Virus record (IMG/VR): IMGVR_UViG_2617270975_000009
Span: 1 to 21,415 of that record
Length of the DNA stretch: 21,415 nucleotides
Direction: 5' to 3' (one strand)
DNA from: a virus
Taxonomy: Duplodnaviria > Heunggongvirae > Uroviricota > Caudoviricetes
The first letter of the stretch is position 1. Every line of letters begins with the position of its first letter. The position numbers are program-made. Shown here one piece after another: positions 12,001-15,000 of this stretch.

Positions 12001-15000
12001 CTTGAATCTATAAGCGAGAGATACACCCGCTTGCTTCAGCTTTATGTAAACAAAGACAGAGAAATGAGCTTGATAAAAATATCTGATTTAATGAGTAGAG
12101 ATTTATAGCAAGCAAAATCCTACGTAAACGTTTTAAGTAAATTTCGCGATTTCCGCTTTGAATACGCTACTGTGTATTTCAAAGCGGATAATCTTCTCAA
12201 AAAAATATTTTATTTTTATCCGCTATCACCCATTCACCGGTTTGTTTAATCTCCTTTCTGTCTACTGATGTCCATTAAAGAAGATGACAGAATATAGGAG
12301 TAAACATGTCTCAATCATTTATTCGTCTTTCTGAGGTTCAACGCCGTACTGGTTACAGCAAAGCGTGGATTTATCGGCTCATCAAAGAACAGCGATTCCC
12401 TCAATCTGTAAAGATTGGAAGCCGATCAATTGCGTTTATTGAAAGTGAAATTGAAGAATGGATTAATCAGCGCATCGCTGAGTCGCGTGGCGAGGTAGCG
12501 TAATGAATAAGAAAAACCGCCCATTACAGGCGGCTAATTCAGATATTCGCGTATCTGATGTTACGCCCCTTACAAAATCCCTTCAAGCACCAAAGCGCAC
12601 ACCGAAAAAGCATCGTGCCAGAGTCTATATGCTGCGTACTGGTATAGAGGGATGGACAGAAAATGACATTCTTCGCTACTGCCGTCTGTCTTCTGGTCGT
12701 AACTATGCAACAGAGTTAGAACGCCAGCTTGGAATCACTCTGGAGCGTATCGACGAAAAGAATCCTGATGGTATCGGAACACACCTTCGCTACCGTTTCT
12801 CCTGCCGTGGTGATGTTCTGAAAGTGATCACTCATATTAACCATCTTGCGAACATAAATGATCACAACGGACTTTCTCAGCAGGAAATTGCCGACATTCT
12901 GAAACTCTACCCGGACGCGTTTAACGCCGCTTAACGGAGACTGAAAATGAACATCGAAAAAAGCAGATTAATTTCTGAGGCCGCCCCTCATCTGAACGCC
13001 TCTCTGAGCACAATTAACGGTAATGAATTTGCCGCAATTGTCCCGGTTATTCCTGGTCATATCGGTGGGCGTGAAACCAATATTGTTAGCGCAAAAGCGT
13101 TACACAAAGCGTTGGGCGTGGGAAAAGACTTCTCTACATGGATCACTGATCGCATCTCTGAATATGACTTCACCATTGGGCACGATTACTCAGTCCATAA
13201 AACTATTTCCCCAAATTTGGGGAAAAGCCCGAATGGCGTGGCTTACAGAAAGATTAAGCAGTCTGGCAGACCCGGCAAAGACTATCTGTTAAGTGTCGGA
13301 ATGGCGAAAGAACTGGCAATGATCGAACGCAATGATCAGGGTCGCGCTATCCGCCGTTATTTCATCCAGTGCGAGGAAGAATTACAGCGTAGCGTTCCTG
13401 AAATCGCCGCCCGCTATCGTCGCCAGCTAAAAGCCCGTATCAGTGCCGCAAACAACTTTAAGCCAATGTGCGATGCGCTGAATATGGCCCGTGCCGAGCA
13501 GGGGAAAACGACGCAGCAACACCACTACACAAACGAGAGCAATATGATTTCTCGTATCGTTCTTGGTGGGCTAACTGCTAAGCAGTGGGCGCGGATAAAT
13601 GGCTATTCTGGCGAACCTCGCGACCATATGAACGCAGAACAACTTGAGCACCTCTCATATCTCGAAAGCACCAATATCACGTTAATTGATATGGGCATGG
13701 AATATGAGCAGCGCAAAGGAGAACTCCCCCGCCTGTCGCAACGCTGGCTCGCTAAGCGTCTGGAGGTGGTCCATGTTTAAGCCGACAGGAACACCACAAC
13801 CTCAAAAACGCTACAAGGATGCCCACGGAGCACTCGTTACTGTCGAAAGCGTGTCTCACAACCGAGTGACGTTTTATCGCGACGGGTATCAATCGCCATG
13901 CGTACAACCGCTGGCGCGCTTCATGAAGGAGTTCGCGGAGGTTAACAAATGCTAACCGTCCAGAAGAAGATATTTTCACTGGCTGGTATGTCGCCAAAAT
14001 CCAGCAATATGACAGCAAAGTCTGGCATTAATACAGCAGATACAAGCAAAGTTTATCATTTTCTGGTGGTGGGAGCGGATGCCTTAACTATGTCAGAAAT
14101 TACGGTCGATGGTGTTAGCGTTGAGAAGGTCGGCGGCTGCGCCAGAGAATTTCTGGTCGTAGATGGCTTTCTCTGCTCGCGTAGTGACTCCACAAAAACC
14201 TTCGTCCACACGCGCGACGTTAACGAAATGAGCGCGATGTATTGTGCATCTGGTGCTTCCAATAGTGAGTTTTCGGAGTCCATAAAAAAGAGCTTGCCGT
14301 TATGCGGCAACACGGTTTATGGTTATAAGGCACCTCATAAAACGGGTGCCGGGTTTCGCAGCCCGGAAATGTACGAGGCGACACATGACGCGCCGAGCGT
14401 CTTTTTTTGTGCCGTTAGCCAGACTCACACTTTTTTCAGTGATGCGGTTATAATCCGCGTCGCTTGCAAAATTATGGTGGGCTGGACAGGGCAGCCGAAA
14501 GGCTGGCCGGTTTCCTTGTACGCCGGTACTGCGAACTCTGTTCAGTCCACCACCAGCGAGTTTCGCAGCTCCGGTGGTGGGAAGAACTCCCAGTACAAGG
14601 AGGCTGCCACATGCTGGCTACTACCCCTACCCAAAAACCGCAATTTATCTGGATTATCGCCGCAGTTCGCCGCGATTGCCCGACAATTACCGCCAAAATT
14701 CATCATATTGCTGCCGAGTCTGAACGCGATGCTCGCCGTTCTCTGGTGCGCGATCACATCTGCTTTTTTGCTGGTCGTATCCGCATGGAGGTGGCACATG
14801 ATTAAAACCTACGATGTGCATATGGATCCCCTCGAACGCACAAGCCAGATCATCACACTGACAGAAGTGATTAACGACATTCTGGTGAGCAACTCTCCCT
14901 CACGAGACGAAAGACTGAAGGCGTTACTCGCGATATTGGATCTCGCCGTTCGTGACGTTCATTTCCTGCTGGAAGGTGGCGAAATGCCAGGAAAAACGGG

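Follow-up and report, generated by a model that had tools for sequence, protein, structure and literature searches.

The question posed by this locus is why one 8-mer, TTTCGCAG, stands twice between inverted repeats, with the complement of its core lying between the two copies. The locus belongs to a 21,415-nt stretch of DNA from a virus of the Caudoviricetes (IMG/VR record IMGVR_UViG_2617270975_000009), the whole of which we call the window. A reading of the sequence alone had noticed the repeats and suggested that they serve loop-loop (kissing) RNA regulation or RNA immunity of the kind known in phage P4. We find that they are parts of two tandem RNAs, and that the region very probably serves RNA immunity in an integrative satellite or island related to P4; the module is homologous to the seqA-CI-seqC region of P4 and to the a1b1-c4-a2b2 arrangement at immI of P1/P7. 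The homology of the module, its anatomy, its complementarity and its co-variation among relatives are taken up first.

Two tandem RNAs and their complementary sites

The repeats themselves are where they had been placed. The first copy of the 8-mer (14354-14361) is flanked by CCGGG and CCCGG, which gives the hairpin at 14349-14366; the second (14561-14568) is flanked by CCACCACC (14547-14554) and GGTGGTGG (14573-14580), and the window holds no further copy. The complement CTGCGAA is at 14529-14535, and a terminator scan finds a terminator-like hairpin with its T-run at 14387-14408. Counts do not set these motifs apart: two copies of the 8-mer compare with 0.98 expected, 27 of 100 shuffles reach two, and the 7-mer TTCGCAG/CTGCGAA is found six times against an expectation of 3.7. 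That the motifs are not chance occurrences follows instead from comparative evidence, namely covariance models and co-variation.

Covariance models, with which the sequence-only reading had proposed to search, match the region well above their thresholds in a scan of the whole window. The Rfam isrK model (RF01394) matches in full at 14330-14407 on the plus strand, with 69 bits against a gathering score of 50. The C4 model (RF01695) matches over positions 1-87 of 87 with 81.1 bits against a gathering score of 45 (E = 8e-15). The two matches lie in tandem on the plus strand, as they do in P4 and in all 18 other relatives scanned. The suggestion of P4-type RNA immunity is thus supported, since P4 gives the same two matches in the same order and spacing. 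The features of the module are the following.

14294-14323, plus strand: putative constitutive promoter of the P4 P_LE kind (-35 TTGCCG at 14294-14299, 18-nt spacer, -10 TATGGT at 14318-14323)
14330-14408, plus strand: leader RNA, the equivalent of isrK and of P4 seqA (hairpin 1 at 14330-14349, hairpin 2 at 14350-14365, then an intrinsic terminator)
14354-14361, plus strand: a1 target site TTTCGCAG (7-nt core TTCGCAG at 14355-14361), in the 8-nt loop of leader hairpin 2
14371-14378, plus strand: b1 target site GTACGAGG, complementary to the loop of C4 hairpin 2
14387-14408, plus strand: intrinsic terminator of the leader, a GACGC/GCGTC stem followed by T7, which is the 3' hairpin of the isrK model
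14470-14557, plus strand: C4/CI-type antisense RNA (Rfam RF01695)
14511-14522, plus strand: b' recognition loop of C4 hairpin 2, UUUCCUUGUACG (pairing core 14513-14521)
14529-14535, plus strand: a' recognition element CUGCGAA, in the 3' single-stranded bulge of C4
14561-14568, plus strand: a2 target site TTTCGCAG (core TTCGCAG at 14562-14568), 4 nt past the end of the C4 model
14593-14603, plus strand: b2 target site GTACAAGGAGG, overlapping the Shine-Dalgarno sequence AAGGAGG (14597-14603)
14611-14805, plus strand: Icd/Kil-like open reading frame (ORF) of 64 aa, the first translated gene past the leader (ATG at 14611, 7 nt after the Shine-Dalgarno sequence)

The leader has the architecture of the isrK family: two 5' hairpins and then an intrinsic terminator, which the terminator scan finds independently. 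The first hairpin of the sequence-only reading is hairpin 2 of the isrK model, and a1 is marked at the equivalent position in the GenBank annotation of P1. The Rfam c4-a1b1 model (RF03163) stays below its gathering score over the leader (22.5 bits against 46.7); P4 itself also falls just under it (44.1 bits). With this model the a1 hairpin of the window aligns and the first hairpin diverges, so that isrK describes the region better. Transcription is predicted, from the sequence, to start at about 14330. The putative promoter resembles P_LE of P4 (TTGCCT, 17 nt, TATAGT) and stands at an equal distance from the leader, and a -10-like hexamer is found at an equal offset in most of the 20 loci of the comparative panel described below. 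A palindrome, TTGCCGTTATGCGGCAA (14294-14310), overlaps the putative -35; the scan scored it as a minus-strand terminator, and it might bind a protein at the promoter.

The C4 RNA consists of a long closing stem around two hairpins, with a 3' single-stranded bulge. By homology with the annotated 77-nt C4 RNA of P1, the mature RNA is predicted to span about 14476-14554 (about 79 nt). The bulge holds CUGCGAA. This 7-mer had been noted as a complement nearby; the complementarity is real, and the 7-mer is more than a neighbor, being the a' recognition element within the antisense RNA itself. Its equivalents are CUGUCAA in P1 and UUCUCAC in P4. The core of a1 is a perfect 7-bp complement to a', and a':a2 likewise makes seven Watson-Crick pairs of seven. 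Thus the RNA-RNA pairing in the kissing proposal holds, whereas its loop-to-loop geometry does not: the contact is between a hairpin loop and an internal bulge.

A second determinant, b'/b1/b2, was absent from the sequence-only reading. It is longer than the a determinant and covers the ribosome-binding site. The loop of C4 hairpin 2 makes 7 Watson-Crick and 1-2 G-U pairs with b1, and b':b2 makes 9 Watson-Crick and 2 G-U pairs that cover AAGGAGG; b2 is annotated likewise on the icd ribosome-binding site of P1. The gene that follows, the Icd/Kil-like ORF, matches the NCBIfam model phage_ICD_like (NF033153) with 70.4 bits and is 42% identical to P4 Kil and 28% to P1 Icd. Identical copies of it are annotated as Icd-like in RefSeq.

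The comparative evidence comes from a panel of 20 loci that carry the isrK-C4 tandem, placed by their Rfam coordinates. The panel comprises the window, five diverged E. coli islands, P4, P1, D6, RCS47, Stx1, Stx2a, SfV, phiP27, PA2, 2H10, a Salmonella phage, a Klebsiella phage, phiv142-3 and Hamiltonella APSE-7. Pairs were counted in an alignment of the 19 distinct sequences from which the variable spacer had been removed. Among these 19 loci there are 11 variants of a' and 18 of b', and nearly every one of the 20 loci has, at fixed offsets on both sides, exact complements to the a' and b' that it carries. The motifs are thereby conserved in the sense that matters: in the 19 related loci, loops and targets change together at fixed positions. 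The overall figures are as follows.

a':a2 with b':b2: 91.3% of cells paired (63% when shuffled, 30-45% when slid); 14 of 16 pairs with compensatory changes
a':a1 with b':b1: 91.0% of cells paired (63.5% shuffled, 32-50% slid); 13 of 15 pairs compensatory
Intramolecular helices of both RNAs: 95.4% of cells paired (83.0% shuffled, 34-44% slid); 22 of 42 pairs compensatory

The co-variation score of a':a2 with b':b2 was reached by none of 500 shuffles. Taken singly, a':a2 is 93.1% paired with compensatory changes in 6 of 7 pairs, and a':a1 95.5% paired, also with 6 of 7; eight of the 9 b':b2 pairs are compensatory, and seven of the 8 b1 pairs co-vary. Within the RNAs, the helices of the leader are supported across the 19 loci. 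For the C4 RNA, paired cells make up 99.7% in the closing stem, where 9 of 17 pairs have compensatory changes, 95.7% in hairpin 1, where all 5 of 5 do, and 100% in hairpin 2. The site a2 is at the same offset in 18 of the 20 loci, and in P1, one of the other two, the record's own annotation marks it.

Pairing is also specific to the locus. An a' makes on average 6.93 of 7 pairs with its own a2, as against 4.35 with the a2 of another locus, and for b':b2 the figures are 8.71 of 9 and 5.72. An excess of own-locus over cross-locus pairing is the signature of a specificity-determining antisense system, and from these sequences the a'/b' variants are predicted to be mutually heteroimmune, like P1 and P7. 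The heteroimmunity of P1 and P7 through changes in a and b is the classic precedent for such variation. The a'/b' combination of the window is unique in the panel, its a' being common only with an Stx1 phage; the locus of the Ec1120 island, for example, has a' ACGCCAA and b' CCUUCAGA. Within the panel, a':a2 pairing is clearly broken only in SfV, whose a2 reads TTGCCGT where its own a' needs TTGGCGT, a single mismatch, with a1 intact. The mismatch may have arisen by escape from immunity, or it may reflect a difference in sequencing.

With the stretch of the module at 14250-14850 as query, 941 of 5,426 complete E. coli genomes have matches; 425 records reach an identity of at least 99%. The two RNA genes themselves are unannotated in RefSeq.

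Between the leader and the C4 RNA there is one further structure.

14441-14461, plus strand: spacer hairpin of the centroid fold, with TTATAAT in the loop

In Ec1120 and PC6, which belong with the window to the class with a 61-nt spacer, the equivalent hairpin has other stem sequences (as judged by eye). The hairpin is confined to this class and is absent from the lambdoid members, whose spacer is 24 nt. Its loop holds a perfect TATAAT; a promoter or a structural element are both conceivable.

Proposed action of the module and competing explanations

How would such a module act? RNA processing, a translational block, Rho-dependent termination and immunity we infer from the work on P1, P4 and Gifsy-1. 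The constitutive promoter at about 14294-14323 would start transcription near 14330. The leader made from it would bear a1 and b1, and the intrinsic terminator at 14387-14408 would stop most transcripts. Those that read through would include the C4/CI RNA, which by analogy would be cut out as a stable RNA of about 79 nt, its 5' end cut by RNase P as in P1 and P4. Its a' (CUGCGAA, in the 3' bulge) and b' (CCUUGUAC, in the hairpin loop) would pair with a2 and b2 on nascent transcripts. The pairing at b2 would cover the Shine-Dalgarno sequence of the Icd/Kil-like ORF, blocking its translation and so leading to early termination of transcription. The replication operon, up to the primase-helicase gene, would thus stay off while the element is integrated, and incoming elements of the same a/b type would be repressed in the same way. 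Transcripts coming from further upstream, from the alpA-antA-DUF4222 operon, would be translated through the module as an Eta-like ORF and would escape the control, as in P4. The equation of isrK with seqA and of C4 with CI RNA on which the scheme leans is found in the literature (PMC3632133, PMC4825925, PMC10111431; the equivalence also in PMC8546580).

If the scheme is right, the a' and b' sequences would provide a simple readout of immunity type for each island or prophage, from which it could be predicted which elements exclude or ignore each other.

Several points weigh against RNA immunity of this simple form. The promoter, the processing sites, the stability of the RNA and the repression are all carried over by homology. 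The putative promoter agrees with the consensus at 8 of 12 positions and is not called by a consensus scan. The details of Rho-dependent termination come from secondary citations and general knowledge. The leader RNA of Gifsy-1 activates rather than represses, which makes the net sign of a1 and b1 uncertain here. Finally, a conserved hairpin at a2 that competes with the C4 closing stem is not explained by the simple model; we return to it below.

The fourth of these points leads to the explanation that survives best beside RNA immunity, an activator circuit of the IsrK type. The terminated leader (14330-14408) would act in trans on the read-through transcript: its a1 and b1 would pair with a' and b', or titrate the C4-like RNA, so that the ribosome-binding site is opened and the downstream genes are turned on. 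The match of the leader to the isrK model speaks for such a circuit. So do a1 and b1, whose complementarity to a' and b' equals that of a2 and b2 and which co-vary with them. In Gifsy-1, experiments have established cis pairing of IsrK G28/G31 with C162/C159 and activation in trans. A fold prediction points the same way. Without bound C4, the Shine-Dalgarno region GGAGGCUGC (14599-14608) is predicted to pair with GCAGCUCC (14565-14572), which consists of the 3' part of a2 and a conserved CUCC flank, so the Shine-Dalgarno sequence would be sequestered by that flank. According to this model, the mRNA leader may be intrinsically closed, as reported for Gifsy-1. Gifsy-1, however, lacks an Icd-like ORF and differs in the organization of its target, orf45 coupled to anrP; in P4, moreover, the seqA region is reported to be necessary for immunity (PMC3632133). 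We regard an activator circuit as possible, if somewhat doubtful. It would be compatible with repression by C4, possibly as an anti-antisense layer on top of it.

A more radical explanation is that the region codes for protein only, the 8-mer, its complement and the hairpins being by-products of coding. The frame in question contains the whole RNA module.

13949-15016, plus strand: Eta-like ORF of 355 aa, a coding sequence in RefSeq under the name 'Ash family protein'

It begins where the DUF4222 gene upstream ends, start and stop overlapping, in an operon of alpA, an ORF, antA and the DUF4222 gene. The frame is uninterrupted and matches the Pfam family Phage_ASH with 99 bits. In 12 of the 20 loci one frame runs without a stop from the leader into the next gene, and the indels there are multiples of 3; the distance from the start of the leader to the C4 ATG in these loci is 105, 129, 144 or 189 nt, always a multiple of 3. 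So much is in favor of coding. The Pfam domain, however, takes in residues 124-232, that is nt 14318-14644, and so coincides exactly with the RNA module (in P4 Eta it takes in residues 37-161). In the other 8 loci every frame is interrupted by stops, but none of the RNA features is lost: the helices persist, as does the complementarity of loops and targets. RNA function is therefore independent of the ORF. P1, where the RNA mechanism was demonstrated, is among these stop-containing loci. Further, the compensatory changes are at the level of RNA, and an intrinsic terminator lies inside the ORF.

The ORF is also accounted for by P4. It corresponds to eta, a gene that encloses the RNA genes and does not stand in for them: P4 eta holds CI and seqA as well as the internal constitutive promoter, it is coupled to an alpA homologue, Kil is its truncated form, and its translation from an upstream late promoter prevents termination (PMC10111431). 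In the P4 sequence, a 214-aa ORF (8812 to 8168) starts upstream of P_LE, crosses the RNAs and ends as Kil. We had considered Phage_ASH as a purely spurious translation of RNA genes, a view revised in light of the frame being open in 12 of 20 loci and of the correspondence to P4 eta. Coding and RNA function overlap; coding alone is insufficient, and we hold it to be very improbable as the whole explanation.

The 3' part of the frame deserves a comment. The window reads CCACATGCTG (14604-14613) where relatives, for example L006 (LWY24), read CCATAATG. By this difference of one base ahead of the ATG, the Eta-like frame loses register with icd/kil and is brought into that of the gene at 14798-15016. 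The alternative frame is open across all 64 icd codons, and is so too in the 87%-identical Ec1120 copy. The NCBI annotation pipeline (PGAP) is inconsistent over such loci, giving a 355-aa Ash protein, an Ash pseudogene or a 240-303-aa 'Icd-like protein'; the labels differ because of the 1-nt difference before the icd ATG. A better annotation would be two RNA genes with their target sites inside an Eta-like ORF, in place of an unexplained 'Ash family protein'.

That the copies of TTTCGCAG are DNA operator sites for a protein, or chance palindromes without function, can practically be dismissed: the count of the 8-mer is not above chance and extra 7-mers occur at 6649, 6675 and 16441, but the sites change with the complementary a' across 11 variants, which a protein operator would not require, they lie in loops of conserved RNA hairpins on one strand, and curated covariance models match them.

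The a2 hairpin and the surrounding island

The second hairpin of the sequence-only reading is the one structure that the module, as described so far, does not accommodate.

14547-14580, plus strand: hairpin presenting a2 (outer arms 14547-14554/14573-14580, inner stem 14558-14560/14569-14571)

The hairpin is there and is conserved, with 97.1% of cells paired, compensatory changes in 8 of 11 pairs, and an inner 3-bp stem that brackets a2. What does not stand is its coexistence with the folded C4 RNA. The 8 nt of its 5' arm, with which the mature RNA is predicted to end, also serve C4 as the 3' side of its closing stem; because the strand is shared, the hairpin can form only in the unprocessed precursor and in place of the C4 fold. 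At two of the shared positions the downstream arm follows changes by Watson-Crick pairs, whereas the 5' strand of C4 only wobbles. This tracking argues, at the level of sequence, for independent selection on the a2 hairpin. In ViennaRNA predictions the conformer with the a2 hairpin has -70.7 kcal/mol against -81.5 for the one with the C4 stem. Since it is 10.8 kcal/mol above, we do not claim the a2 hairpin as the dominant fold.

Could the hairpin be one half of a conserved, selected conformational switch, in which the precursor either folds C4, for processing, or displays a2? We think this unlikely, though worth stating. If it were true, the alternative fold would set what share of the transcripts serves as antisense RNA and what share as target or mRNA, and so would add a layer to a paradigm that is 30 years old. 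We did not find a role of the a2 hairpin described in the literature consulted, which left out the primary P1/P4 papers. This hairpin is the only loose end; otherwise, the locus raises no new mechanistic question.

Downstream of the module lie the genes that it would control.

14798-19735, plus strand: operon of overlapping small ORFs (from the ORF list, Pfam and the RefSeq annotation)
16976-19735, plus strand: Toprim/DUF927 primase-helicase, the last gene of the operon

The operon is presumed to be the regulated cargo. A search of the window for further trans targets, in the form of an a site followed by a b site, gave none beyond the two known pairs.

The first 391 nt of the window (1-391) are identical to the last 391 (21025-21415), which gives a closed circle of 21,024 bp. 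The stretch at 9500-9698 is the right end of a chromosomal island, and that at 9688-9900 runs from the 3' end of a tRNA-Thr gene into int; in E. coli chromosomes the island is integrated at the tRNA-Thr gene beside proBA. Since the two stretches overlap by an 11-nt core (9688-9698), the window contains the attP junction, and represents an excised (or tandem) circular form of the island. No complete tRNA gene was found in the window by ARAGORN. P22-like phages also use thrW. Other features of the island are these.

786-5444: P22-type virion block (DUF2824, gp7-like, gp20-like injectosome translocase and a 701-aa ORF), which excises with the island
11145-11212, plus strand: int-alpA RNA motif of Rfam, flanked by the integrase and DUF6387 genes (46.7 bits; gathering score 35.8)
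20182-21395, minus strand, and 1-391: IS3-family element, between the primase-helicase gene and the P22-type block

The frameshift pseudoknot of the IS3-family element (ALIL) is at 20998-21114 with 120 bits. In strain UTME-6, another IS3-family copy interrupts the primase gene itself.

One claim of the sequence-only reading failed, namely that a related core occurs at 6647-6708. The count of the 7-mer in the window is not above chance, no b-type site is near the proposed core and no Rfam model matches it; the copies of TTCGCAG are in stems, not loops, of the predicted fold, whose z is only -1.9. The segment 6354-7548 is absent from the Ec1120 island, the module of which is intact. We therefore regard the core as unrelated to the C4 system. 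In strain 6409 the segment lies where about 1 kb is without annotation. Close by, at 6671-6711, there is a 10-bp inverted repeat, CAGGTTCGCA...TGCGAACCTG, with a direct repeat of GGTTCGCAG nearby. These repeats are in variable cargo and are not linked to the C4 system.

The closest known systems

The class of system is already known, and standard Rfam annotation detects the module. It has been understood since the work of the 1990s on c4 of P1/P7 and CI of P4, and was extended to the phage-inducible chromosomal islands (PICIs) of Gram-negative bacteria in 2023. What the locus adds is that a real bipartite antisense system was recoverable by a model reader from raw sequence.

P1 is the founding member of the Rfam C4 family, and has the same layout of a1, b1, C4 (with b' and a'), a2 and b2, with b2 on the ribosome-binding site of an Icd-family gene. 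Its GenBank record annotates a1, b1, the 77-nt C4 RNA, a2, b2 and icd, and maps position for position onto the window. In P1, a' (CUGUCAA) pairs with UUGACAG in a1 and a2, and b' (CACUAAC) with GUUAGUG in b1 and b2. The sequence identity to P1 is too low for megablast: a search from RCS47 gave no match to P1 or P7. The systems differ in what is controlled. The P1 operon (icd, ant1/ant2) encodes the antirepressor Ant, which acts on C1 immunity, whereas the module in the window precedes replication genes. P1 also has no open Eta-like frame across the module.

Gifsy-1 of Salmonella, with isrK-STnc1160/orf45-anrP, is the source of the Rfam isrK family. It resembles the window in having a leader small RNA with a terminator, followed by a C4-like RNA, which in Gifsy-1 is processed; the a' region is contacted there by the central part of IsrK. 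The circuit is reported to be an activating one, through which the antirepressor and AntQ are expressed (PMC4825925). Unlike in the window, its C4-like stretch is described as the translated orf45, and there is neither an Icd-like ORF nor a replication operon.

In P4, both on the minus strand, the match to the C4 model (8420-8507) falls on the gene of the CI RNA and that to isrK (8615-8692) on the P_LE leader. As in the window, a1 is in the loop of leader hairpin 2, b1 follows about 10 nt on, and an intrinsic terminator ends the leader; a' is in the 3' bulge and b' in the hairpin-2 loop of the antisense RNA, a2 comes 4-5 nt past that RNA, and b2 is on the Shine-Dalgarno sequence. The likeness extends to the genes: the first ORF (Kil) is homologous, the Eta-like ORF follows an AlpA-family gene, and a primase gene ends the operon. 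The recognition sequences differ, being UUCUCAC/CCUGUGAA in P4 and CUGCGAA/CCUUGUAC in the window, and the two are predicted to be heteroimmune. The spacer from the terminator to the antisense RNA is 61 nt in the window and 106 nt in P4. The Eta-like frame of the window is one base off kil and runs into the next gene, whereas P4 eta ends as Kil. The window further differs from P4 by AntA/AntB and DUF4222 genes between alpA and the module, and by a primase of the DUF927 type. The P4 genes psu, sid, delta and epsilon had no match among the 20 ORFs scanned against Pfam, nor do they appear in the RefSeq-annotated identical copies.

The organization of the element as a whole is that of the Gram-negative PICIs, with which the window shares a layout of four zones: int and AlpA; Bro/Ant-type genes with C4 and isrK; replication; and late genes (PMC10111431). 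That survey gives no detail by locus, and does not single out the a/b type of the window or the thrW island. The late zone of a PICI consists of captured helper late genes, and the P22-type ejection genes at 786-5444 fit that zone. The element is thus better described as a P4-related island of the Gram-negative PICI type than as a strict P4-like satellite.

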